Assembly: GCA_017860005.1 (NCBI GenBank)
Contig: JAFNAE010000002.1
Coordinates: 1-55,506, forward strand
Length of the DNA: 55,506 nt
Origin: Acidobacteriota bacterium
Lineage (GTDB): Bacteria; Acidobacteriota; Thermoanaerobaculia; Multivoradales; JAGPDF01
Direction: 5' to 3'
Shown here: in pieces, positions 9,836 to 22,429 of the stretch
Layout: each line of letters opens with the position of its first letter
How positions within the stretch are numbered: position 1 is the stretch's first letter
The notes under the pieces: model-generated
Told to the model about the DNA's origin: nothing
What the model saw: the letters and a program-made list of their open reading frames with translations, nothing else
Database searches by the model: none
Position numbers and translations under genes: made by a program

Positions 9836-12718
9836 TCAGCGGGCCGGCCGCACGCGCACCACGAGCGGGTCGTGGTCGCTCACGCGCACGCCGTCCGGAC
9901 AGTCGGCGTCGACGTGCACGATCTCGGCCTCGGCGCCGCGCGCGAGCGCCGGCGAGACGACGACGTGGTCGAGCGCCTGCGCGGTCCCCTCGAAGTTGAA
10001 GGTGTAGCGCCGCTTCTCGGGCACGCGCAGGAGGAGGTTGTCGAGCGGCGGACCCGACACCAGCCGGACCGCCGCGCTCCAGGGATAGTCGTTGAGATCG
10101 CCGAGCACCACCACGCGCGCGTGCGGATCGGCGTCGAGCAGCCGGTCCACGAAGGCGCGGATCTCGCGCGCCTGCGCCAGGCGGCGGCTCGCGGTCGGCC
10201 GGCGGGGCGGCTGCGCGGCGCCGAACAGGCGATCGTCCTGGTACTTCGAGGACCAGTGGTTGACGATCACGAACAGGCGGACGCCGCCCGCCTCGAGCTC
10301 GACCGCGAGTGAACGGCGCACGCCCTCGCCGCCCACCAGCGTGAAGGCCTCCGAGCGCGCGGCCACACGTCCGGGGCTCGCGGTCAGGCGGGTCTCGCGT
10401 CCGGTGCCCTCGATCCCGACCTCGGAGAGCGGTCCGCCCGCACCCCGGCGCGCCACGCGCACCCGGAGCGGGTCGGCGAGCAGGGCGACCCGGATGTTGC
10501 CGCCGGGCTGACCGCCCTCGCGGTCGAGCTCCGGGTCGATCACCACCGCCTCGTAGGCGGGCCCGCCCGCCGCACGGATCGCGCCGGTCAGCGCCGCCAG
10601 CGTGGCCGCCGAGGTCGCGACGCCGTCCCCGCCTTTCGCGCCGCTGTCGTCCTGGACCTCCTGGAGCGCCACCACCGCCGGCCCGGCGAGGGCGCGCGCG
10701 ATCACCCCGGCGACGTTGACGATCCGCTCCGGAGGCCCCGCGACCGACAGGTTCTCGACGTTGAAGGTGGCGATCGTGAGCGCGCCCGGGAGGTCGCCGA
10801 GCGAGGTCCGACCCTGGCAGGAGACACCCTCCGCCGCCACCTCGAGCGGCGAGAGCGGCAGCACCTTGAAGGTCGAGAAGGAGTAGTCGACCACCCCGAG
10901 GATGGGACCCGCCAGGCGCGCGCCGACCGACAGGCGCGGCACCTCGCCCACCAGCCGCCGCGAGAGCACGACGCGCGACAGCGGCGGGCCCTCCGGTGTC
11001 ATCAGCGCGCCGCCCGCGGCGCTCGCCGGGGCGCCGCCCAGGTCCGCCGGGAGCAGGATCAGCTCGCCGTACGACGCGGTCGGGCCGGTGACCACGCCGC
11101 CGGGCAGCTCGACGCGCATCGACTCGAGGCTCTCCCAGAAGTCGATCGCGTCGCGTTCGGGCTCGAAAGCGCCCAGGGCATCGTCGTCGACCACCCCCGG
11201 GATCCGGCGCTCGCTCCAGAGGCGCGCCGCGGGCGGCAGCGAGGCGCCGGGTCCTAGCCGTTCGACAAACGTCGCCGCGAGCGTCGTGACCGGCAGCTGC
11301 GTCGCGTCGCGCGCCAGCTCGAGCACCCGGCCGCCGACCCGGACGCGCTCGCCGGGCTGCGGCAGCTCGATCGCGCGCGCATCGACGTAGAGGCCCTCCG
11401 AAGTCGCAGCATCGGTGTCCGGCGCCTCGGACTCGAGCCAGAGAACGCGCTCGCGCGGCCGGTCGAGGAGCGCGGACACCGTCCCTTCCACGCCGGTCAG
11501 CCAGCGCCCCTCGAGCGGCGACCGGTGCCCGGCTCCCTGGACGAGGGAGATCGGGACCGGCTCGGTGCCGACCGCGAACGCCAGCACCAGGGCGCGCTGG
11601 GCCGTCGGATCGAAGTTCTCGTCGGCGATCAGGATCAGCGCGCGGCGTCCGTCCGGCAGCGCCGGCCCGAGCGCCATTCCCTCCAGGTTGTCGAGCGGCA
11701 GATCGAGGGCTCCGAGGTCGAGCCACGCCGCCTTGCGCGCCGGCACCACCTCCGGCGCGTCCAGCCGGTCGATGCCGGCGACGTCGGTCGCGCCATCCAG
11801 GTCGACCAGGTAGACGCGCGCCTCCACGCCCACGCCCGAGACGAACTGGCGCTCGAGCGCGAGCAGCTGCGTCGCCGAAAGCGCAACGAGCTCGACCAGA
11901 CCGTTGGTGCGGAATCCGCTCTCGTCGGGCGGAGCAACCGACACCGGCTCGACGCGATAGACGAACTCGGACGGCGGAACGGCCAGGTCGTCCAACCGCC
12001 AGCGCACGATGCGCGCCGGGCTGGCCGCCCCGACGTCGGCGCGCGGCCCGTCCTGGACGAGCGCGTTCTCGGTCGCCGCGAAGAGCCACTCTCCGGACGG
12101 CGTCACCGCCACGCTCTCGAAGCCGAGGTTGTCGCGCACGCCGGCCCGCCGGGCGCCGTCGGGCAGGAAGCGCGCCGGCAGCTCCAGCCGCCGCCGCATC
12201 CGGCCGCTGCGCTCGAGCTCGGCGACGAACGGCGCCTGGCCGACGTTGGCCTCGCCCTCCGAGGAGACGAACAGCCGCTCGCCGTCGAGGGCCAGCCCCT
12301 CCGGGTCGAGGCTGCGGCGCGGGAACGGCCGCCCGCTCTCGTCGAGCAGCCTCACCCGGCCCGCCACGACCAGGTCGCCGGCGTCCAGATGCCCGTCCGA
12401 GAGATCGACGTGCAGGCGATAGAAGCGCGCCGGCGCCAGCTCGCTGCGGTCGTCCGAGAGCGCCAGCAGCTCGCCGGCGCCGGCATCCCAGGCGAGGGCG
12501 GAAAGCCCTCCCACCGGCTCGTCCTCGAAGGTGAGATCGCGCGCGAGCTCCAGGGCACCGATCCACTCGAACGACGTCGGCATCGCCGGCTGGCCGCCGG
12601 CCGCGGCCGCCCGGGCCCCGCGAGCGGCCGGCGCGTGCTCGGGCTCCGCCGGCTCCCCGCTCGCGCACGCGGAGACGAGCACCGCGAGGGCGGCCAGGAC
12701 GGAGAGCGATCTGGGCAT
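9836..12718 (-). CDS. Secreted lipoprotein: phytase-like esterase domain fused to an endonuclease/exonuclease/phosphatase (EEP) domain (960 aa)
   Basis: ATG at 12718 with a lipobox (LAVLVSAC). N-terminal GGLSALAWD ... LSDDRSE ... FYRL is of the phytase-like type. C-terminal EEP motifs are TIATFNVENL, VVALQEVQDD, IVNHWSSK, LGDLNDY and SDHDPLVV. The 5' 532 codons of track ORF 9836..14314 are antisense shadow. Confidence 0.8.
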   Translation of the reverse strand: MPRSLSVLAALAVLVSACASGEPAEPEHAPAARGARAAAAGGQPAMPTSFEWIGALELARDLTFEDEPVGGLSALAWDAGAGELLALSDDRSELAPARFYRLHVDLSDGHLDAGDLVVAGRVRLLDESGRPFPRRSLDPEGLALDGERLFVSSEGEANVGQAPFVAELERSGRMRRRLELPARFLPDGARRAGVRDNLGFESVAVTPSGEWLFAATENALVQDGPRADVGAASPARIVRWRLDDLAVPPSEFVYRVEPVSVAPPDESGFRTNGLVELVALSATQLLALERQFVSGVGVEARVYLVDLDGATDVAGIDRLDAPEVVPARKAAWLDLGALDLPLDNLEGMALGPALPDGRRALILIADENFDPTAQRALVLAFAVGTEPVPISLVQGAGHRSPLEGRWLTGVEGTVSALLDRPRERVLWLESEAPDTDAATSEGLYVDARAIELPQPGERVRVGGRVLELARDATQLPVTTLAATFVERLGPGASLPPAARLWSERRIPGVVDDDALGAFEPERDAIDFWESLESMRVELPGGVVTGPTASYGELILLPADLGGAPASAAGGALMTPEGPPLSRVVLSRRLVGEVPRLSVGARLAGPILGVVDYSFSTFKVLPLSPLEVAAEGVSCQGRTSLGDLPGALTIATFNVENLSVAGPPERIVNVAGVIARALAGPAVVALQEVQDDSGAKGGDGVATSAATLAALTGAIRAAGGPAYEAVVIDPELDREGGQPGGNIRVALLADPLRVRVARRGAGGPLSEVGIEGTGRETRLTASPGRVAARSEAFTLVGGEGVRRSLAVELEAGGVRLFVIVNHWSSKYQDDRLFGAAQPPRRPTASRRLAQAREIRAFVDRLLDADPHARVVVLGDLNDYPWSAAVRLVSGPPLDNLLLRVPEKRRYTFNFEGTAQALDHVVVSPALARGAEAEIVHVDADCPDGVRVSDHDPLVVRVRPAR

Positions 12719-12793: not shown

Positions 12794-13960
12794 ATGGTGA
12801 GCCGTCGCCGTCCCCGTCGCCCCTCGACCCTCTCCCGCGCCCGCGATTTCGTGCGCGACTACACCGACGGCGCCGGTGCGAGCGACCTCCGGCGCCTGGT
12901 CGATCGCGACGCGCCGCGCGTCTACTCGGTGCTGATGCGCGACCGGCCGGCCGGCGCCCAGCCGGCGCGCGGCTTCCGGCGTCTGCTCCGGGACGCCCGC
13001 CTGCTCTTCCTGTCGGTCTCGGAGAAGCTCTCGCCGCCGCGCCGCCTGCTCTTCGCGCTGTCGCTCGTCTGCGGCGTGCTCGGCCTGACCGACGTCCAGT
13101 TCACGATGAACTCGACCGACTACGGCTTCCGCGCCGACTCCTCGCCGCTGTTCTCCCTGGTGGCGCTGGGCGGTCTGGTCTTCCTGCTCGCCGCCGAGCT
13201 GGTCGATCGCGTCCTGGTGCGCGACGAGCTCGAGGTCGCGCGCCAGCTCCAGCGCGAGCTGCTCCCCGCCGACGTCCCGGACCTGCCCGGCTGGGCCTTC
13301 GCGCACTCGTGGCGGACCGCCAACGAGATCGGCGGCGACTACCACCTGTTCCAGGCGCTCCCCGACGGCCGCCTCGCGATCGTGGTGGCGGACGCCTCCG
13401 GCCACGGCATGGCGGCCGGCCTGTTGATGGCGATCGCCGACGCCTCGCTGCGCGTCGCCCTCGACCTCGATCCCGAGCCCCACGCGGTCGCCACGCTGCT
13501 CCACCGCGCCCTGCGCCGCTCGGGCAGCCGGCGCTCGTTCCTGACCCTGTTCTACGGCCGGCTCGAGCCCGCCACCGGCCGGCTGGACTACGTCTGCGCC
13601 GGGCATCCGCCGCCGATCGTGCGCCGGGAGGACGGGACCCTCGAGGAGCCCGCCGGCGGCGCGCTCCCGCTCGGCCTCGGCGATCGCTTCGCGCCCGCGC
13701 AGGGCACGCTGGAGATCGGCCGCGGCGACCGGCTGGTGCTGTTCACGGACGGCCTCTTCGAGTCGCTCGACGCCGCCGGCGAAGCTTTTGGCTACGAGCG
13801 GCTGCGGCGCGAGCTGGCGGCCTCGAGCGGCGCGCTCGACGCCCACGATCGCCTGCGCGCCGCCCACCGCGTCCACGTCGGCGACGAGCCGCTCTCCGAC
13901 GACCTGACGGTCGTGGTGGTCGAGCGGCTGCGCGAGCCGGCGACCGCCGCGCCCGCTTGA
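12794..13960 (+). CDS. Membrane-anchored PP2C/SpoIIE-family Ser/Thr phosphatase (388 aa)
   Basis: N-terminal TM helices, followed by GGDYHLF ... VVADASGHGMAAGLLMA ... LTLFYGRL ... GHPPP ... LVLFTDGLFE ... SDDLTVVVV. Confidence 0.85.
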   Translation: MVSRRRPRRPSTLSRARDFVRDYTDGAGASDLRRLVDRDAPRVYSVLMRDRPAGAQPARGFRRLLRDARLLFLSVSEKLSPPRRLLFALSLVCGVLGLTDVQFTMNSTDYGFRADSSPLFSLVALGGLVFLLAAELVDRVLVRDELEVARQLQRELLPADVPDLPGWAFAHSWRTANEIGGDYHLFQALPDGRLAIVVADASGHGMAAGLLMAIADASLRVALDLDPEPHAVATLLHRALRRSGSRRSFLTLFYGRLEPATGRLDYVCAGHPPPIVRREDGTLEEPAGGALPLGLGDRFAPAQGTLEIGRGDRLVLFTDGLFESLDAAGEAFGYERLRRELAASSGALDAHDRLRAAHRVHVGDEPLSDDLTVVVVERLREPATAAPA

Positions 13961-14003: not shown

Positions 14004-14438
14004 GTGACCGGAATCCCGCGCCGACCGCGACCTGCCCGGCTGGTCGCCCTGCTGCTCGCGCTCGTGCTCGGGCCGGCGCTCGACGGGGCCCTGGCCGGGA
14101 CCCGCCCGGCGGCCGGCTGCGCCTGCGCCGGCGGTTCCTGCTGCGCGCGCCTCGCCGCGCGGTCCTGCTGCCCGCAGGGCCATTCGGCCGGCAGCTCGTG
14201 CGCCCGGAGCGGACGGGCCGCGAACGGACCTCGATTCTCGGTCACCTGCGGCTGCGAGCATCCGGCGCCGCTCGGCTCGCCAGGCGCGCGCGAGCAGCCG
14301 GCGCTGCTCGGCACCTCCGTCGCCCTGGCGCGGCCCTCGTCCGGTCGCGCGACGACCCGTCCGAGCCCACGGCCCGAGCCGCCCGCGGCCTCCTCTCCGG
14401 ATCCGCCCCCTCCGCGCCCTCGCCTCTCTCCCGCCTGA
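14004..14438 (+). CDS. Small secreted Cys-rich protein with a Pro-rich tail (144 aa), function unknown
   Basis: GTG start and a signal-peptide-like N-terminus (ARLVALLLALVLGPALDGALAG). It has nine Cys residues arranged CAC-x4-CC-x7-CC-x9-C ... CGCEH. About 9 of 10 third codon positions are G/C in the first 60 codons I read. There is no strong SD, so this is a tentative call. Confidence 0.55.
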   Translation: MTGIPRRPRPARLVALLLALVLGPALDGALAGTRPAAGCACAGGSCCARLAARSCCPQGHSAGSSCARSGRAANGPRFSVTCGCEHPAPLGSPGAREQPALLGTSVALARPSSGRATTRPSPRPEPPAASSPDPPPPRPRLSPA

Positions 14439-14571
14439 TCGGAATCGGGGAAGGCCGAGGCGCGCCGCGCGTGGCGGCCGGTCGCCGGCCTCTCCGCCGC
14501 TCGTGCCTGCTCCGCGCCGTGCGCGGCGCGGGCCGGGCCGACCCGGGACCGCTGCCCGAGAGAGGAAGACC

Positions 14572-16890
14572 ATGTTGCGACACCGATTCCGGAGCGCGGC
14601 CGGCACCGCGCTCCTGGTGCTGTGCGCTCCGCCCGCGGCCCTCGCGGCCGCGCCGGCCCTGTCCGGGCGCGTCGTCGACCGCACGGGCGATCCTGTGCCC
14701 GGCGCCACCGTCACCCTCGCCTGCGCCGGCCGCGCCGAAGTCGCGGGGATCGAGACCGACGACTTCGGCCGCTTCCTCGTGCGGGTGCCGGAGGGCTGCG
14801 CTCCCACCCTCACCGCCTCGCTGCCCGGCCTGGCGGCAGGCACGCCGGTCGCGATCGACGCCGCCGCCCAGCCCGAGCTCGAGCTCCGACTCGACCTCGA
14901 TCTCTTCGCGGACCGCATCGAGGTACGCGAGAGCGCGCTGGCCGACGGCCTCGGATCGCGCGAGATCCGCGAGAGCTTCGCGCGCGACGTCGGCGACGCC
15001 GCGCTGCGCGTACCCGGGGTGACGCGACTGCGCAAGGGCGGGCTCGCCAACGACGTCGTGCTGCGCGGGTTCAAGGGCGAGAATCTCGCCGTGCTGGTCG
15101 ACGGCCTGCGCGTGCACGGCGCCTGTCCCAATCGCATGGATCCGCCCGCCTTCCACGTCGATTTCGCCGAGATCGAGCGCATCGACGTCGCCAAGGGCCC
15201 CTCGGCGGCCCCCGGGGGCGGGCTCGGCGGCACGGTCAACGTCGTCACCCGCGAGCCGGCGCCCGGCCTGCACGCCGAGGCGCAGGCCGCGGCCGGCTCG
15301 TTCGGCTACCTGGCGCCCTCGGCGACCGTCTCCTGGTCGGACGGACGCTGGAGCGGCAAGGCGGGCTGGGCGCAGCGGCGCGGCGACCCGTTCGAGGACG
15401 GCGACGGGATCTCCATCACGGAGCTCCTGCCCGAGCCCGCGCCGGCCGCCTACCGGCGCGAGGCGCGCGACGACCGCGCCTTCGACGTCACCACCGCCTG
15501 GGCCGGCATCGGCTACTCGCCGGCCCCCGGTCACCAGCTGGAGCTCGAGGCGACGCGCCAGGACGGCGGCTCCCAGCTCTATCCCTACCTGATGATGGAC
15601 GCCCGCGAGGACGACGCCGAGCGCGCGCGGCTGGCCTGGCACCAGACGGCCTCCTCGGGTCTTCTGCGCTCGCTCGAGGCGGTGGTCGGCTGGGCGGCGG
15701 TGGATCACACCATGGACGACCGCCTGCGCACCTCCTCGACCGGCACGTCCGCCGGCTGGTCGATGAGCACCGCCGCGGCGTCCAGCGTGCTCGAGGCCCG
15801 CCTCGAGGCCGGTCTCGACCACGGCTGGACGCTGGGCGCCGACGGCTACCGGAGGTCGTGGCGTGCGACCACGTGGCTCGCGCCGCCCGGCGGCATGGCG
15901 CGGCCGCCGCAGGCGACGATCCCCGACGCCGAGCTCGACGCCGCGGGCCTCTACGCGCAGCTCGAGCGCCAGCTGGGCTCCGCGATCGGAGTCCGTGGCG
16001 GCGCGCGCGTCGAGCGCGCCGAGAGCCGCGCCGACCGGAGCCTGGCCGACGCCGCGCTCTGGCTCGCCTACCACGGCACCGCCGCCGCATCGCGCGACGA
16101 CCTGCTCGTCTCCGCCGACCTCGGGGTCTCGTGGCGCCCCGCGGCGGACTGGGAGCTCGCCGCAGCGATCGGCCGCAGCGAGCGTCCGCCCGACTCCCAG
16201 GAGCGCTACTTCGCGCTGCGGCGGATGGGCACGGACTGGGTCGGCAACCCCGAGCTCGATCCCGCCGGCAACACCCAGCTCGATCTCGGCCTGCGCTGGC
16301 ACGCAGGCCGCGTCGCGCTCGACCTCGACGCCTGGTACGCGGTCCTCGACGATGCGATCCACGTGGTCGAGACAGAGCGCGTGCTCGCCGTGCCCGGCGT
16401 GACGAACTCGCGCGCGCGCTCCTGGGTGAACCACGACGCACGCATGTGGGGAGCCGAGGTCTCGGCACGTATCGAGCTCGGCGCGCGCACCTCGCTCGCC
16501 GCCTCGGGCGGCTGGGTGCGCGGGCGCCGGGAGGCGGCTCCCGAGCTCGGCATCGTGGACGGCGACCTGCCGGAGATGCCGCCGCTCGGCGGCCGGCTCT
16601 CGCTGCGCTACGAGCCCGGCCGCTGGTTCGTGGAGGCCGAGGGCGTGGCCGCCGCCCGCCAGGATCGCGTGGACTCCGGCCTGCACGAGGAGGCGACTCC
16701 GGCGTGGTCGGTCCTCCACCTGCGCGCCGGTTGGCAGGCCGGGCGCTGGTCGCTGCTGGCGGGGGTGGACAACCTGCTCGACCGCGCCTACCGTGAGCAC
16801 CTCTCCTACCAGCGCGATCCCTTCCGTTCGGGCGTCGCGGTGCCCGAGCCGGGTCGCACCTACTCGCTCAACCTGCGCGTGCGCGGATGA
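14572..16890 (+). CDS. TonB-dependent outer-membrane receptor, OprC/NosA-like (772 aa)
   Basis: ATG at 14572 with AGAGGAAG upstream and a signal peptide. CarboxypepD_reg-like N-domain (GRVVDRTGDPVPGATV), a plug containing LVDGLRVHGACPNRMDPP, then a barrel. CPNRM (Cys185/Met189) and DHTMD (His379/Met381) fit the CxxxM...HxM copper-site pattern. Confidence 0.85.
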   Translation: MLRHRFRSAAGTALLVLCAPPAALAAAPALSGRVVDRTGDPVPGATVTLACAGRAEVAGIETDDFGRFLVRVPEGCAPTLTASLPGLAAGTPVAIDAAAQPELELRLDLDLFADRIEVRESALADGLGSREIRESFARDVGDAALRVPGVTRLRKGGLANDVVLRGFKGENLAVLVDGLRVHGACPNRMDPPAFHVDFAEIERIDVAKGPSAAPGGGLGGTVNVVTREPAPGLHAEAQAAAGSFGYLAPSATVSWSDGRWSGKAGWAQRRGDPFEDGDGISITELLPEPAPAAYRREARDDRAFDVTTAWAGIGYSPAPGHQLELEATRQDGGSQLYPYLMMDAREDDAERARLAWHQTASSGLLRSLEAVVGWAAVDHTMDDRLRTSSTGTSAGWSMSTAAASSVLEARLEAGLDHGWTLGADGYRRSWRATTWLAPPGGMARPPQATIPDAELDAAGLYAQLERQLGSAIGVRGGARVERAESRADRSLADAALWLAYHGTAAASRDDLLVSADLGVSWRPAADWELAAAIGRSERPPDSQERYFALRRMGTDWVGNPELDPAGNTQLDLGLRWHAGRVALDLDAWYAVLDDAIHVVETERVLAVPGVTNSRARSWVNHDARMWGAEVSARIELGARTSLAASGGWVRGRREAAPELGIVDGDLPEMPPLGGRLSLRYEPGRWFVEAEGVAAARQDRVDSGLHEEATPAWSVLHLRAGWQAGRWSLLAGVDNLLDRAYREHLSYQRDPFRSGVAVPEPGRTYSLNLRVRG

Positions 16891-16911: not shown

Positions 16912-18411
16912 CTAGGTCGGCTCGGGCTGGGCCGACCAGTGGCGCAGGTAGCCGGTCAGGCGCAGCTTGCGCCGCGTGTTGGCGCTCGACATGTAGCGCA
17001 CCATGCCGTAGACCGGGCGCTCCGGCGCCCAGGGCCGGTCGTACCGGCCGAGGCACCAGCCGATGCCGCTCGCGGAGTTCGGGTCGCGCCCGTCGAGAGC
17101 CCAGCGGTCGTTGAGCGCGAACAGCGCGGCCAGGGCCTCGCGCGGCGTTGGCGTCCACTCGAGCACGCGCTTGCCCCACAGCATGCGCAGGTAGTTGTGG
17201 ATCCGTCCTTCGCCGCGCAGCTGGCGTTGCGCCGCGTTCCAGAGCTCGTCACCGGTGTCGCCCTGCTCGAGCCGGTCGTGGGCGTAGTGCGCGGGACGCG
17301 CGTCGCCCGCGTGCTTCTCGAGCGTCGCGCGCGCCCAGGCCGGCAGCGCCTCGTAGCGGTCGTAGTCGTCCGGCCGCCGCGCGGCGGCGTGGTAGCCGAG
17401 CTCGCGCCAGGTGACCAGCTGGTCGAGGAACGCCTCGGCCGACGCGCTCATTCCCCACCACCCCGCGCGCGCGCCGGCGCCCGAGCCGGGGAGGAGCTCC
17501 GGGCTCCAGCCCTCGCGTGCGCCGACGCGCGCCAGGATCGCGTGGGCGGAGAGGTGTCCGAAATGGAGATAGGGCGAGAGGCCGCTCGACGCTTCGGCGT
17601 CGGGGTGGCTGCGCCCCTCCGCGTAACGCGGCAGGCGCCGCTCGACGAACTCGTCGAGCGCGCGCTCCCCCGCGCGCGCGCCGCCGGGTAGCGCGGGCAC
17701 CGGGGCTACCTCGTGATCGATCGGCAGCGCGGCGAGCGCGGCCGGAGCCGCGGCGAGCAGCGCCTCGTCGGCCCGCGGCCAGCGCCGCTCGATCTCCTCC
17801 GGCAGGCGCGCGAGCCGCGGCAGCCGGGCGGCGGCGAGCGGGTCGGCGAGCGGTGGCCGCGTCAGGCAGGCCGCGAGCCGCGCCTGCAGGAAGCGACGGA
17901 AGACGTGCGCGCTCGGAAAGTCGCGGCCGGCGGCGGCGAGCGGCAGCAGGCCGTTCGAGTCCACCGCCTCCAGCCGGCACTCGACGCGGCGGGCCGCGGC
18001 GGCGAGCAGGCGCGGCAGGTGGAAGACCGGCGAGTCGTCGGCGATCAACGCGCAGGCGTGCCGCGACAGGGCCTCGACCAGCCCCTGGCCCGCGCCCGGC
18101 TCGGCCTCGACGTAGGGGTGGTAGAGGATCGGCGCGCCCGCGGCGCGGCGCGCCTGGTCGGCCATGCCGGCGAGCACGAACGCATGGAACCGGTCGCTCG
18201 CCCAGCGGTGACCGCAGCCGAGCGCCTCGACCACGACCAGGGGCCGGGACAGCCGCTCCGCCAGCGCCAGGGCGCGCTCCAGGCCGTAGTTCCACTGCAG
18301 GCGGCGCGTCGCGGTCATCCAGTAGGCGACGAACTCCCCGTCCGGACGGAGCGGCCGGTCGGCGAGCACGCGCCGGCGCGGATCGGCGGAGTCCGCAGAG
18401 CCGGAGGTCAT
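16912..18411 (-). CDS. phr: Class II CPD photolyase (499 aa)
   Basis: ATG at 18411 with GGAG upstream. C-terminal GRIHNYLRMLWGKRVLEW ... LNDRWALDGRDPNSASGIGWCLG ... RYMS matches the class II photolyase pattern. Confidence 0.85.
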   Translation of the reverse strand: MTSGSADSADPRRRVLADRPLRPDGEFVAYWMTATRRLQWNYGLERALALAERLSRPLVVVEALGCGHRWASDRFHAFVLAGMADQARRAAGAPILYHPYVEAEPGAGQGLVEALSRHACALIADDSPVFHLPRLLAAAARRVECRLEAVDSNGLLPLAAAGRDFPSAHVFRRFLQARLAACLTRPPLADPLAAARLPRLARLPEEIERRWPRADEALLAAAPAALAALPIDHEVAPVPALPGGARAGERALDEFVERRLPRYAEGRSHPDAEASSGLSPYLHFGHLSAHAILARVGAREGWSPELLPGSGAGARAGWWGMSASAEAFLDQLVTWRELGYHAAARRPDDYDRYEALPAWARATLEKHAGDARPAHYAHDRLEQGDTGDELWNAAQRQLRGEGRIHNYLRMLWGKRVLEWTPTPREALAALFALNDRWALDGRDPNSASGIGWCLGRYDRPWAPERPVYGMVRYMSSANTRRKLRLTGYLRHWSAQPEPT

Positions 18412-18439: not shown

Positions 18440-20407
18440 TCAGAGCTCGACCTGGGCGCCGAGCTCGACCACGCGGTTGGAAGGGATGCGGAAGAAGGCG
18501 TTGGCCGGCCGCGCATTGCGCGCGAGGTAGACGAACAGCCGCTTGCGCCACCCCGCGAGCCGGGCGCGCCCGGTGGGCAGGATCGTCTCCCGCCCGAGGA
18601 AGTAGCTGGCCTTGCTGGCCTCGACGCGCAGCCCGCGCTCGGCGCAGCGGCCGAGGACCTTCGGAACGTTGGGCGTCTCCATGAAGCCGTAGCGCGCGAC
18701 GACCTCCCAGAAGCCCTCGCCCAGCTCGCGCACGTCGAATCGCTCGGCCGCAGCCACCTCGGGGATGCCCTCGGTGACCAGGGTCATCAGGATCACCTTC
18801 TCGTGCAGGACCTTGTTGTGCTTGAAGTGGTGCAGCAGGACGGGCGGGGTGCCGTCGAGCTGCGAGGTCATCACGACCGCCGTGCCGGGTACCCGCGGCA
18901 GCTTGCCCTGCGCGCTGCGCCGCCCGACGTCGGCGATGAACACCTCGATCGGCAGCTTCGAGGCGCTGAACTGCTCCTGGAGCAGGTGCCGGCCGCGCTT
19001 CCAGGTGGTCATCACGGTGAACAGCGCCAGGCCGGTCACGATCGGCACCCAGCCGCCGTGGGCGAACTTGACGACGTTTGCGGAGAGGAACATGACGTCG
19101 AAAGTGAGGAAGAGGAGAGCCAACGGGAGCGCCTGCCAGATCGGCCACCGCCAGAGGTGGCGCGCGACCGAGTAGAGCAGGAGCGTGGAGATGAGCATGG
19201 TCGAGACGACTGCGATGCCATAGGCCGCGGCCAGCGCGCTCGAGCCGCGGAAGCCGACGGTGAGCGCTATACAGGCGACCATCAGCGCCCAGTTCACCTC
19301 GGGCAGGTAGATCTGCCCGCTCGCCTCGCGCGAGGTATGGACGATGGTCAGACGCGGCCAGAAACCGAGCTGGATCGCCTGCTGCATGAGCGAGTAGGCA
19401 CCGGAGATCAGGGCTTGCGAGGCGATCACCGCGGCGACGGTGGCGATCACGACCATCGGGTACAGCGCCCAGCCCGAGTAGAGCTCGAAGAACGGGTTGT
19501 CGCGAACCTCGCTGCCGCGCGCGAGCAGCAGGGAGCCCTGGCCGAAGTAGTTCAGGAGCAGGGCCGGGAAGGGGACGCAGAACCAGGCGAGGCGGATCGG
19601 CCTCTTGCCGAAGTGCCCCAGGTCGGCGTAGAGCGCCTCGGCGCCGGTGATGCAGAGCACGACCGCGCCCAGGATCAGGAAACCGTGCACGCCGTTGGCG
19701 AGAAAGAAGCGGAGGCCGTGGACCGGATTGATCGCCGCCAGCACTTGCGGATGGGCCACCACCTTGGGCAGCCCGGCGGCCGCGATCGCGACGAACCAGA
19801 CCAGCATCGCGGGACCGAATACCGCTCCCACGCCGGCCGTGCCGCGTCGCTGGAAGTAGAAGAGTGCGAGCAGGATGCCGACCGCGAGCGGCACGACCAC
19901 CGGACGGAACAGCGGGGTCGCGACCTCGAGTCCCTCGAGCGCGCCCAGCACCGAGATGGCGGGCGTGATCATCCCCTCCGCGAGAAGCAGAGCGGCGCCG
20001 AACACGCCCAGCAGGATCAGCATCGATCGGCGGCGGGCGCCGGTCTCGCCGCGCCCCTTGGGATTCGACCCCTGGTCGGTGACCAGCGCGAGCAGCGAGA
20101 GGATGCCGCCCTCGCCGTGGTTGTCCGCGCGCAGGACGAAGACGAGGTACTTGACCGCGACCACCATGGTCAGCGCCCAGAAGACCAGCGAGAGGACTCC
20201 CAACACGTTGTCGAGCGTCGGCTCGACACCGTGGCCGGGCGCGAAACACTCCTTGAGCGCGTAGAGGGGCGAGGTGCCGATGTCGCCGTAGACGACGCCC
20301 AAGGCGCCGAGCGACAGACGGGCGAGATCCTTCCAGCCGCGGACGACCGGCGCGTGGGAGGGGCTCGAAACCAAGGTCGCCCCGGAATGACTTTCGCGCT
20401 CCGGCAT
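18440..20407 (-). CDS. kup: KUP/HAK/KT potassium transporter, copy 1 (655 aa)
   Basis: GVVYGDIGTSPLY, ADNHGEGG, ITGAEALYADLGHFG and 12-TM topology, plus a C-terminal cytoplasmic domain. Confidence 0.95.
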   Translation of the reverse strand: MPERESHSGATLVSSPSHAPVVRGWKDLARLSLGALGVVYGDIGTSPLYALKECFAPGHGVEPTLDNVLGVLSLVFWALTMVVAVKYLVFVLRADNHGEGGILSLLALVTDQGSNPKGRGETGARRRSMLILLGVFGAALLLAEGMITPAISVLGALEGLEVATPLFRPVVVPLAVGILLALFYFQRRGTAGVGAVFGPAMLVWFVAIAAAGLPKVVAHPQVLAAINPVHGLRFFLANGVHGFLILGAVVLCITGAEALYADLGHFGKRPIRLAWFCVPFPALLLNYFGQGSLLLARGSEVRDNPFFELYSGWALYPMVVIATVAAVIASQALISGAYSLMQQAIQLGFWPRLTIVHTSREASGQIYLPEVNWALMVACIALTVGFRGSSALAAAYGIAVVSTMLISTLLLYSVARHLWRWPIWQALPLALLFLTFDVMFLSANVVKFAHGGWVPIVTGLALFTVMTTWKRGRHLLQEQFSASKLPIEVFIADVGRRSAQGKLPRVPGTAVVMTSQLDGTPPVLLHHFKHNKVLHEKVILMTLVTEGIPEVAAAERFDVRELGEGFWEVVARYGFMETPNVPKVLGRCAERGLRVEASKASYFLGRETILPTGRARLAGWRKRLFVYLARNARPANAFFRIPSNRVVELGAQVEL

Positions 20408-20461: not shown

Positions 20462-22429
20462 CTAGAGCTCGATCTGGGCGCCGAGCTCGATGACGCGGTT
20501 GGGCGGGATGCGAAAGAAAGCGTTGGCGGGCCTGGCGTTGCGCGCCAGGTAGATGAACAGCAGCTTGCGCCACTTGGCCAGTACGGCACGGCCGGTGGGG
20601 AGAATCGTCTCGCGGCCCAGGAAATAGCTGGCCTGGCCCGGCTCGATGGGCAAGCCGAACTGCCCGCAGCGCTCGAGGAGCCGGGGCACGTCGGGAGTCT
20701 CCATGAAGCCGTAGCGGCCGACGACTTCCCAGAATCCTTCGCCGAGCTCGCGCACGGCGAGCCGTTCGCGCCCGCGGATCTCGGGCACGCCCTCGGTGAC
20801 CAGCGTCAGCAGCACGATGCGCTCGTGGAGCACCTGGCTGTGCTTGAAGTAGTGCATCAGCACCGGCGGCGCGATGCCGGTCTGCGAGGTCATGACCACG
20901 GTCGTCCCGGGCACGCGCGGCAAGCGGCCCTGCTCGGTGCGCCGGCCGACGTCGGCGAGGAAGAGCTCGATCGGCAGGCGCGATCCCATGACCTGCTCCT
21001 GGAGCAGTCGGCGGCCGCGCTTCCAGGTGGTCATCAGGGCGAACAGGCCCAGGCCGGCGCCGATCGGCAACCAGCCTCCGTGGGAGATCTTCACCACGTT
21101 GGCGGCGAGGAAGGCCCCGTCCACCAGCAGCAGGACGCCGGCTCCGAGCGCGGCGAGCCACGCCGGCCAGTGCCAGAGGTCGCGCGCCACCGAATGGAGC
21201 AGCAGCGTGGTGATCAACATGGTCGAGACCACCGCGATGCCGTAGGCCGCGGCCAGGCCGGTCGAGCTCCGGAAGCCCACGGCGAGCGTCACGCAGGCCA
21301 CCAGCAGCGCCCAGTTGACCTCGGGGACGTAGATCTGACCGCTGGCCTCGCGCGAGGTATGGACGATCGTCAGCCGCGGCCAGAAGCCGAGCTGGATCGC
21401 CTGCTGCATGAGCGAGAAGGCTCCGGAGATCAGCGCCTGCGAGGCGATCACCGCGGCCCCGGTGGCGATGACCACCATCGGGTAGAGCGCCCAGTGCGGG
21501 GCCAGCTCGTAGAACGGATTGCCGCGCACCTCGGAGCCGCGCGCCAGCAGCAACGCGCCCTGGCCGAAGTAGTTGAGCAGGAGCGCGGGGAATGCGATCC
21601 AGAACCAGGCCGCGCGGATCGGCCGCCGGCCGAAGTGACCCATGTCGGCGTAGAGCGCTTCGGCGCCGGTGATGCACAGCACCACGGAGCCGAGGATCAG
21701 AAAGCCGTACCAGCCGTGGCCGAGCAGAAAGCGGAGTCCGTGCAGCGGATTGACGGCGGTCAGCACGCGCGGCTCGGCGAGCACCTGCGGCAGCCCGGTC
21801 GCCGCGATGGTGCCGAACCAGACCAGCATCGCCGGTCCGAAAACCCTGCCGATACCCGCGGTGCCCCTGCGCTGGACCGCGAAGAGCACGATCAGAATCG
21901 CCACCGCGAGCGGCACCACGTAGGGCCGGAAGAACGGCGTCGCGACGTCCAGTCCCTCGAGCGCGCCGAGCACGGTGATCACCGGCGTGATCATGCCGTC
22001 GGCCAGGAGCAGCGCGGCGCCGAACACGCCCAGCAGGATGAGCATCGCGCGCCGCCGGGCTCCGGCCTCCCCCTTGGCCTTGGGGTTGCTGCCCTGGTCG
22101 GTGACGAGCGCGAGCAAGGCGAGGATGCCGCCCTCGCCGTGGTTGTCCGCGCGCATGACGAACGCGAGGTACTTGACCACCACGACCAGGCTCAACGACC
22201 AGAAGACCAGGGACAGGACGCCGAGCACGTTGGCGAGCGCGGGCTCGACGCCGTGCGTCGGAGAGAAGCACTCCTTCATCGTGTAGAGGGGCGACGTGCC
22301 GATGTCGCCGTAGACCACGCCCAGGGCACCGAGCGAGAGGCGGGCGAGATCCTTCCAGTCGCGGACGACCGGCGCGTGGGAGTGGGTCGAAGTCGAGAGT
22401 GCGCCGGCCTGGCTGTCGCGGTCCGACAT
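20462..22429 (-). CDS. kup: KUP/HAK/KT potassium transporter, copy 2 (655 aa)
   Basis: Same motifs and exactly the same length as copy 1. I counted 77 identities in the first 100 residues. Confidence 0.95.
   Translation of the reverse strand: MSDRDSQAGALSTSTHSHAPVVRDWKDLARLSLGALGVVYGDIGTSPLYTMKECFSPTHGVEPALANVLGVLSLVFWSLSLVVVVKYLAFVMRADNHGEGGILALLALVTDQGSNPKAKGEAGARRRAMLILLGVFGAALLLADGMITPVITVLGALEGLDVATPFFRPYVVPLAVAILIVLFAVQRRGTAGIGRVFGPAMLVWFGTIAATGLPQVLAEPRVLTAVNPLHGLRFLLGHGWYGFLILGSVVLCITGAEALYADMGHFGRRPIRAAWFWIAFPALLLNYFGQGALLLARGSEVRGNPFYELAPHWALYPMVVIATGAAVIASQALISGAFSLMQQAIQLGFWPRLTIVHTSREASGQIYVPEVNWALLVACVTLAVGFRSSTGLAAAYGIAVVSTMLITTLLLHSVARDLWHWPAWLAALGAGVLLLVDGAFLAANVVKISHGGWLPIGAGLGLFALMTTWKRGRRLLQEQVMGSRLPIELFLADVGRRTEQGRLPRVPGTTVVMTSQTGIAPPVLMHYFKHSQVLHERIVLLTLVTEGVPEIRGRERLAVRELGEGFWEVVGRYGFMETPDVPRLLERCGQFGLPIEPGQASYFLGRETILPTGRAVLAKWRKLLFIYLARNARPANAFFRIPPNRVIELGAQIEL

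Follow-up and report, generated by a model that had tools for sequence, protein, structure and literature searches.

We analysed a 55.5-kb stretch of DNA with a GC content of ~75% (hereafter the window), which comes from contig JAFNAE010000002.1 of an Acidobacteriota bacterium and whose nearest genome relatives are metagenome-assembled genomes (MAGs) of Thermoanaerobaculia. On its forward strand, a small open reading frame (ORF) of 144 aa (14004-14438) directly precedes a gene encoding an OprC-like TonB-dependent receptor (14572-16890). On the evidence presented below this ORF is probably a cis-acting regulatory leader of the receptor gene, which would sense copper through its nascent chain in the manner of CruR and CutF. 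The sequences themselves show the architecture of the leader, the conservation of this architecture and its pairing with the receptor gene; ribosome arrest, copper sensing and the direction in which these would control the receptor are what we infer.

The coordinates of the ORF were checked codon by codon. It starts with GTG, ends with TGA and is predicted to encode a peptide that is rich in Cys, is exported and carries a poly-Pro stretch near its C-terminus. Residues 1-31 (14004-14096) constitute a predicted Sec-type signal peptide: the basic n-region MTGIPRRPRPAR is followed by a hydrophobic region spanning L13-L25 (12-mer Kyte-Doolittle mean of 2.73) and by ALA and then G at residues 29-32, and a helix was placed at residues 10-26 in a model generated by AlphaFold2 (AF2) from the single sequence. 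Beyond this signal helix the model shows nothing confident (predicted local distance difference test score, pLDDT, of 52), a single sequence being weak evidence. A Cys cluster, presumed to be the metal-sensing module (14118-14261, codons verified), contains the nine Cys residues in the arrangement C39-A-C41, C46C47, C55C56, C66 and C82-G-C84-E-H86. CxC (C39/C41 and C82/C84) and CC pairs are thus present, and CXXC is absent from the ORF; C39 and C41 are invariant in family alignment A1, and C82 and C84 in family alignment A6. The cluster is followed by an Ala/Pro/Gly/Ser-rich spacer (residues 87-133; 14262-14402), across which the coding signal is flat, and whose length but not sequence is kept among relatives. 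Next comes PPPP (P134-P137, encoded by CCG CCC CCT CCG; 14403-14414), a putative ribosome-arrest or pause site in which PPP is invariant in alignment A1, and finally a tail of seven codons, RPRLSPA, plus TGA (14415-14438), whose length is conserved in relatives. The Pro-rich tail ends DPPPPRPRLSPA, and the C-terminus written out is ...SSPDPPPPRPRLSPA followed by the stop codon. These data confirm the layout given in the initial annotation of this DNA, namely a nine-Cys ORF with a signal-like N-terminus located 133 nt 5' of the receptor gene on the same strand.

The receptor is a protein of 772 aa with a signal peptide, identified by Pfam, NCBIfam and PDB profile matches. It has a plug (residues 129-219; PF07715, E=1.4e-15) and a barrel (residues 314-735; PF00593, E=2.7e-36). 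Its top NCBIfam model is TIGR01778, TonB-dependent copper receptor, with 193.6 bits (heme receptor, 127.9 bits), a score that lies below the equivalog cut-off of this model (472.45 bits). The best match in the PDB was OprC (6FOK, E=1.7e-32), with BtuB as runner-up (1.8e-7). The copper ligands of OprC are C143, M147, H323 and M325 (PMC8610252). When the receptor was aligned to 6FOK with HMMER, its GACPNRMDP and the DHTMD of its AVDHTMDD fell on GACPNRMDA and DHIMD of OprC. The CxxxM of the plug (C185, TGT, and M189, ATG; 15124-15138) is aligned to C143/M147, and the HxM of the barrel wall (H379, CAC, and M381, ATG; 15706-15714) to H323/M325. All four ligands are therefore in register, in agreement with the earlier proposal that the receptor carries the OprC site, and the Cys-to-His spacing proposed at that time was confirmed as well (194 residues, versus 180 in OprC). 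None of the four residues varies among 14 related receptors that were aligned, and CxxxM-HxM is present in nearly all surveyed loci with a readable receptor frame. Two positions of the methionine track are also kept, OprC M286 corresponding to M342 (at least 90% conserved) and M343 to M398 (invariant), whereas OprC M339 is not conserved and is replaced by Ala. Identity to proteobacterial homologues is ~25-28% (tblastn, plasmid-borne copper receptors). By these alignments, the receptor is OprC-like, a distant relative that carries the defining site of OprC. It differs from OprC also by an additional N-terminal CarboxypepD_reg domain (residues 30-107, 14659-14892; PF13620, E=9e-12), which is kept in most acidobacterial relatives; the match to 6FOK begins at residue 137 and leaves this domain uncovered.

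Gene callers left the 611-nt gap before the receptor gene uncalled in all six source contigs among the matches listed. The coding status of the small ORF is not established by composition alone. Its GC content at third codon positions (GC3) is 0.855, versus 0.93-0.95 in the flanking genes, and that at second positions (GC2) is 0.79, versus 0.51-0.59; the high GC3 put forward in the initial annotation is accordingly a weak argument for coding, as it is below that of the neighbours. Searches of Pfam and NCBIfam with the ORF and 30 relatives gave nothing relevant down to E=10. Used as a single query against 5.8 billion predicted proteins the ORF gave zero matches, itself included, and a word-indexed search of these proteins with an eight-member family alignment retrieved only three, a poor yield that is probably due to the low-complexity composition of the family. 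When 1.84 billion representative proteins were searched exhaustively with a profile, 74 clusters were returned at E<=1e-3, nearly all of them 110-150 aa long and aligned end to end. Among loci that were fetched via the receptor (39-58% identity), L009, L010, L012, L014, L016, L018 and L020 have a colinear ORF of 127-151 aa in the corresponding position and orientation. Each of these ORFs begins with a basic and hydrophobic N-terminus and contains an invariant CxC, additional Cys residues and an invariant C-terminal PPP. Two further family members, recovered as called proteins, directly precede TonB-dependent receptors. Codon-level comparison of the trio L014/L022/L023 gave ratios of nonsynonymous to synonymous substitution rates (dN/dS) of 0.16-0.32, with about twice as many changes at third positions as at the other positions; dN/dS was 0.33-0.58 within the Holophagales-type group of leaders (see below) and 0.53 for a Thermoanaerobaculia pair. 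Moreover, the six frames of the whole window contain 267 stop-to-stop ORFs with a minimum length of 100 aa, and the ORF in question is the only one of them to combine a signal, a Cys cluster, a spacer of ~53 aa and a Pro run at the C-terminus. The conserved position, dN/dS values below one and the 74 profile clusters show that the small ORF is a real gene under selection, as had been suggested initially.

The association with the receptor gene was assessed in a second survey of 80 loci (L026-L105; 30-59% identity), which were collected with a receptor alignment and 74 of which were usable. A strict architecture test was applied, for which an ORF of at least 100 aa had to have a Pro run within 10 aa of its stop, a hydrophobic 12-mer before the Cys cluster, and at least four Cys residues 50-112 aa upstream of the last Pro, one of them at 50-60. 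This test was passed by 24 of the 99 ORFs in the upstream slot (24/74 loci) versus 3 of 1803 ORFs elsewhere in the six frames (Fisher p=2e-29), and on inspection these three (L069, L089 and L094) turned out to be upstream leaders too, the receptor start having been misplaced at these loci. A leader is located directly upstream of the receptor gene in at least 27 of the 74 loci and nowhere else in them. In L024, leader and receptor form a self-contained two-gene cassette between unrelated genes. Partial leaders were found in L028, where it is broken by a masked N run, in L039, where it is frameshifted, and in L007, where it has an internal deletion. The latter locus (L007:4620-5010) belongs to the closest MAG relative, whose receptor is 58% identical; the deletion fuses the first CGC to ...PPDLP..., and the leader frame reads through into the receptor ORF without a stop; either the leader has decayed or the assembly is at fault here. 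Homologues of the leader thus recur beside OprC-like receptors, and the pairing is kept in many genomes.

Family members share a plan consisting of an export signal, a Cys cluster (7-12 Cys), a spacer of fixed length, and a Pro run located 0-10 residues before the stop. A signal-peptide-like N-terminus was found by hydropathy in 32/32 members examined. The sub-families are nearly unlike in sequence (mean column identity of 24% in alignment A3), yet the plan is common to them. The Thermoanaerobaculia type, to which the window ORF belongs together with L029-L032 and L078, has the form CxC..CC..CP..CGCxH ... PPP(P)[R/Q] plus 7 aa. The Holophagales type (L034-L038, L042, L060 and L070) contains HGCHCPVKMACCEAGLCH..WSGCRDEAP and ends with PPPR plus 7 aa, and the Sulfomarinibacteraceae type (L043, L044, L049, L052 and L076) contains YYCCCPGECHCTADCCNHAP..CGTW and ends with P-R-A-P-P or R-G-P-P plus 5-6 aa. 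The largest group, which includes most profile hits, ends with ...[YF][LP]AFLYQRPPP plus 2-3 aa; the ending ...AFLYQRPPP plus 2-3 aa was seen in 66/75 profile hits and is the best-conserved segment of the family. Versions from Geobacter and Desulfuromonadales are also present. The Pro run therefore occurs as PPPP in the window, as RPPP in most members and as RAPP or RGPP in some; a C-terminal Pro run was observed in 75/76 of the profile-search proteins, 66 of which have RPPP(P). The motif RPPP is a benchmark strong pause motif dependent on elongation factor P (EF-P), and RAPP and RGPP are established arrest motifs (PMC12992588). The motif 'QRPPP' was not found in this context in the searchable literature.

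The tail is exactly 7 aa long in 6/6 members of the Thermoanaerobaculia type and in 7/8 of the Holophagales type, L070 having 10. In all but one of the 32 locus-derived members, 50-60 aa separate the last conserved Cys from the last Pro; among profile hits the mode of this distance is 53, and 64/75 are within 48-56. In the window ORF the distance from C84 to P137 is 53, exactly the family mode. In the Holophagales type, the Cys region has a dN/dS of 0.13, the spacer one of 0.62 and the Pro motif plus tail one of 0.63, and a single 1-aa indel is present in the spacer among six sequences. These values indicate that the spacer evolves almost neutrally at a fixed length.

In the mechanism that we favour, the N-terminus of the leader would thread through Sec during translation and the ribosome would pause or arrest at PPPP, P134-P137, seven codons before the stop. 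At arrest, C82 and C84 would be located 53-55 residues from the peptidyl-transferase centre, just past the exit tunnel, and the remaining Cys cluster, 71-98 residues back, would be farther outside. Binding of copper to the nascent chain, or copper-dependent chemistry on its thiols, would then alter the duration of the arrest, and the position of the arrested ribosome would set expression of the downstream receptor. According to the logic of CruR, the arrest would persist when copper is scarce and the receptor would be made; when copper is present the arrest would be released and Rho-type polarity or termination would silence the receptor. We favour this copper-off logic because the target is an importer, because OprC, NosA and BfrG are copper-repressed (for oprC and nosA, PMC8610252), and because the spacer between leader and receptor is long (133 nt) and has no demonstrable hairpin occluding the Shine-Dalgarno sequence. 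The 3' end of the leader lies in a C-rich and G-poor stretch (14340-14460) with a composition resembling that of Rho-utilisation (rut) sites; an 80-nt segment at 14340 contains 44 C and 22 G, and the C/G ratio over the last 120 nt of the leader is 1.94 in the window, with a median of 1.67 over 31 loci, versus 1.13 for intergenic DNA. This region could serve Rho loading, or its composition may merely reflect the Pro and Ala codons.

A close precedent is CruR (Bp2923, DUF2946) of Bordetella pertussis, a protein of about 140-145 aa with an export signal that is encoded by a copper-responsive upstream ORF of the bfrG operon (PMC9426467). Its CXXC occupies residues 90-93 and its RAPP residues 139-142, with three residues left before the stop; the length of the stretch in between (45 residues) varies by no more than 1-2, and adding five residues breaks regulation (PMC9426467). 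Copper on the nascent chain relieves the arrest, which results in Rho-dependent termination before the TonB-dependent transporter gene, and CruR homologues also precede OprC-type receptors, mostly with long spacers (PMC9426467). Arrest at RAPP of CruR has been demonstrated in vitro (PMC12992588). Like CruR, the window leader is the first gene, directly before and on the same strand as a gene for a TonB-dependent transporter; it is likewise about 140 aa long, with an export signal at its N-terminus, a metal motif made of Cys residues and, shortly before the stop, an arrest-type motif containing Pro; its Cys-to-Pro distance is tightly kept (53, and 49-52 for CruR); and it is separated from the next gene by a long intergenic spacer (133 nt, and 162 nt for CruR). 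It differs from CruR in having CxC and CC clusters with 7-12 Cys in the family instead of a single CXXC, in having PPPP plus 7 aa (relatives, RPPP plus 2-3 aa) instead of RAPP about three residues before the stop, and in its occurrence in Acidobacteriota and some Desulfuromonadota, CruR being proteobacterial. Acidobacteria are not among the entries seen of the CruR homologue table (PMC9426467).

CutF, encoded by the cutFOG operon of Rhodobacter capsulatus, is exported co-translationally and senses periplasmic copper via CxxxC, located 45 residues before a Pro-rich motif (PMC9973294). It opens a stem-loop over the Shine-Dalgarno sequence of the next gene and so regulates a multicopper oxidase (PMC9973294). 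CutF-like proteins have been defined by a length below 150 aa, a signal peptide, a Cys-type metal motif, PP among the last 15 residues and, less than 1000 nt downstream, a gene on the same strand; the published list has 5,334 proteins, and genes of the TonB type rank second in frequency among the neighbours (PMC9973294). With 144 aa, PPPP at 134-137, a gap of 133 nt and nine Cys residues, the window ORF falls within this class on every count, an assignment made by these operational criteria only and with a signal peptide predicted from hydropathy and the AF2 helix. It differs from CutF itself, which has CxxxC, an oxidase as target and a stem-loop shielding the downstream Shine-Dalgarno sequence; a comparable structure could not be shown at the window. 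Similarities extend to the RAPP/RGPP arrest peptides ApdA, ApdP and SecM-like proteins (PMC10951233, PMC12992588), which are likewise small exported proteins encoded upstream of the gene they regulate and have Arg-x-Pro-Pro near the C-terminus, as do the Sulfomarinibacteraceae leaders (RAPP/RGPP) and most relatives (RPPP). Through their true RAPP and RGPP motifs, the Sulfomarinibacteraceae leaders connect the poly-Cys family with RAPP arrest peptides of the classical kind. Unlike the latter, the window ORF lacks Arg at position -3 (its context is D-PPPP-R), and its target would be a metal receptor and not protein-localisation machinery. Judged by these comparisons, the leader is best described as a variant of the CruR/CutF type that is CutF-like by criteria, yet not a member of DUF2946. 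The statement in the initial annotation that the small protein is not of a known family hence stands as far as Pfam and NCBIfam are concerned, but its architecture fits the published CruR (DUF2946)/CutF-like class (PMC9426467, PMC9973294).

A DUF2946 leader was also encountered on the Klebsiella plasmid NZ_CP137420.1 (L107:2307-4872), where a His/Met-rich member is located 82 nt upstream of a gene for a TonB-dependent copper receptor, with copC nearby. It contains CGYC and, 50 residues later (53 in the window), RAPP, followed by a 7-aa tail as in the window. The query receptor matched 157 Klebsiella plasmid records, and the DUF2946 leader was confirmed in one of them (NZ_CP137420.1).

Several observations weigh against a copper-sensing arrest leader. 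The window ORF has PPPP and not RAPP or RGPP, and pauses at poly-Pro are normally relieved by EF-P; a robust arrest is therefore not guaranteed. The 7-12 Cys residues exceed what a CXXC-type sensor needs, and the purifying selection over the whole ORF is also compatible with a functional mature peptide. Homology to DUF2946 had to be rejected: none of 30 family members matched PF11162 (none at E<=10) and neither did the window ORF, whereas 4/4 proteobacterial proteins used as positive control did (best E=3.9e-21), and hhalign of the leader family against DUF2946 gave a probability of 0.9%. Receptors without a leader are present in L008, L011 and L013; the leader is therefore dispensable for the receptor. 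In L111 (3725-6103), family member P0004 (...AFLYQRPPP) precedes a CarboxypepD_reg-containing TonB-dependent receptor without CxxxM, so that copper specificity of the entire family is not assured; receptors with other substrates may also be under the control of the family. Just upstream in L111, a second gene pair of the TonB type is present.

The same holds for the RNA-level results obtained for the 133 nt that separate the leader stop at 14438 from the receptor ATG at 14572 (spacer 14439-14571, including the receptor Shine-Dalgarno sequence GAGAGAGGAAG at 14558-14568). No RNA switch that would couple arrest to receptor expression could be shown: this spacer folds no better than shuffled sequences (z=0.31), and for six Thermoanaerobaculia spacers RNAalifold gave a positive covariation term and predicted no pair touching the Shine-Dalgarno sequence. 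We considered a general pairing of the Pro codons (CCNCCNCC) with the Shine-Dalgarno sequence, and this was rejected on the basis of a duplex test between leader 3' end and receptor ribosome-binding site at 31 loci (p=0.92 versus other leader segments, p=0.063 versus shuffles).

Other interpretations of the ORF have to be weighed against the same data. The initial annotation had suggested a metallochaperone, a metallophore-like peptide or a redox buffer. As a stable thiol-rich periplasmic partner, the mature peptide of ~113 aa would be a Cu(I) chaperone or buffer that takes the receptor's copper or protects the periplasm, which is consistent with the signal peptide and nine Cys residues, with purifying selection over the ORF that is strongest in the Cys region (dN/dS of 0.13), and with the constant co-location with a metal receptor. 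We nevertheless consider this unlikely as the explanation of the ORF. A folded protein would hardly account for a low-complexity C-terminal half that is near-neutral yet length-fixed, conservation is highest in a Pro motif next to the stop, no confident fold was predicted past the signal helix (pLDDT of 52, a weak argument from a single-sequence model), and the closest precedent, CutF, undergoes degradation once it has been exported (PMC9973294). A regulatory leader fits better because of the C-terminal Pro motif, the fixed distance of ~53 residues and the freely drifting spacer (dN/dS of 0.62, versus 0.13 for the Cys region); all three roles suggested initially are thereby made less likely, although a chaperone role coexisting with a regulatory one is possible. 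A precursor of a ribosomally synthesised and post-translationally modified peptide (RiPP), a methanobactin-like metallophore re-imported by the receptor, seems very improbable. It would explain a small Cys-rich peptide adjoining a TonB-dependent receptor, and methanobactin operons do include such a receptor. However, genes for maturation (MbnB/C-like) or export do not adjoin the ORF in the window, which has PP2C, photolyase-like and Kup genes for neighbours, and they are likewise not adjacent in the L024 cassette; with 110-150 aa and a Sec signal the family is unlike the ~30-aa MbnA, and the conserved Pro motif and ruler would be unexplained.

Alternatively, the leader may arrest translation and respond to an input other than copper, such as periplasmic redox or disulfide capacity, Sec export status, or Zn, Cd, Ag or Hg. 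The same architecture would fit, small RAPP/RGPP proteins are encoded upstream of disulfide-bond and Sec genes (PMC12992588), copper specificity does not extend to all CutF-like proteins, and the family member of L111 is paired with a non-CxxxM receptor. On the other hand, the target has the copper-specific CxxxM-HxM in the window and in nearly all readable surveyed loci, and the nearest characterised analogues, CruR and CutF, answer to copper; we therefore regard a different input as improbable, more so than a chaperone. Hardly credible is that the ORF is spurious in DNA of 79% GC and the 611-nt gap a non-coding 5' untranslated region, even though it was never called as a gene, its GC3 is only 0.855 with a GC2 of 0.79, and long ORFs are common at this composition. 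Motifs, length and frame are kept across phylum-level divergence, dN/dS is below one, there are 74 profile hits, and the architecture is confined to the upstream slot; these sequence comparisons effectively refute a spurious ORF. The copper-sensing regulatory leader remains the reading that we prefer.

If it is correct, nascent-chain copper sensing of import, as described for CruR in 2022 and CutF in 2023, would reach another phylum via a family lacking detectable homology to those described so far; the mechanism is plausible and extends a known paradigm without overturning one. More tentatively, and with the balance somewhat against it, the family as a whole might consist of unannotated exported poly-Cys arrest peptides, mostly uncalled, which are widespread in Acidobacteriota and occur in some Desulfuromonadota, and which would have converged independently of DUF2946 on the same design, including a ruler of ~50 residues. 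With such a convergence, the ruler would be a physical constant of nascent-chain metal sensing at the junction of ribosome and translocon, and copper-dependent translational or termination control of outer-membrane importers would be a general bacterial solution rather than a proteobacterial one. More than 100 natural sequences, in which the spacer drifts at a length of ~53 and the arrest motifs are RPPP, PPPP-R, RAPP and RGPP, could reveal by what route metal bound outside the ribosome influences arrest at the peptidyl-transferase centre. Gene callers miss such ORFs in high-GC MAGs, and regulatory leaders of metal uptake are consequently under-annotated in environmental genomes. OprC-type CxxxM-HxM receptors, with an added CarboxypepD_reg domain, are common in Acidobacteriota.

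Some features of the intergenic region vary between sub-families. The spacer is 123-140 nt long in the Thermoanaerobaculia sub-family, where a semi-conserved GC hairpin resembling CCGAGYGTKTCGG is present ~30 nt past the leader stop (window 14439-14520; L029, L030 and L078), without a U-tract and without covariation support. A subgroup with short spacers of 37-42 nt (L014:4800-4935, L022:1211-1341 and L023:455-585) differs in that the codons of FLYQRPPP (…CCGCCUCC…) are predicted to pair with the GGGAGGG Shine-Dalgarno sequence and the start codon, which would be an arrest-site/anti-Shine-Dalgarno design; it is not family-wide. Neither a sigma-70-like promoter nor an intrinsic terminator was found, and Rfam gave no family match, the one weak viral-hairpin hit (14733-14770, reverse strand) inside the receptor gene being noise.

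A SpoIIE/PP2C phosphatase gene (12794-13960; Pfam E=9e-44) is located 43 nt upstream of the leader and had been suggested as a possible part of the same unit. It precedes the receptor in two close relatives only, L028, in which a leader is present, and L008, in which it abuts the receptor gene and the leader is absent. Membership of the unit was therefore rejected, and the adjacency is lineage-specific synteny. Divergent from the PP2C gene is a gene on the reverse strand (9836-12718) for a 960-aa protein with Phytase-like and endonuclease/exonuclease/phosphatase domains (precomputed Pfam). Convergent with the receptor gene is a reverse-strand gene of 499 aa (16912-18411) with sub-threshold matches to DNA photolyase (E=9e-4) and FAD_binding_7 (7.5e-5), the product of which may be a divergent photolyase/cryptochrome-like protein. 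Also on the reverse strand are two tandem genes for 655-aa Kup-type K+ transporters (18440-20407 and ~20462-22429; PF02705/PF22776), followed by a gene for a PnuC-like nicotinamide mononucleotide transporter.

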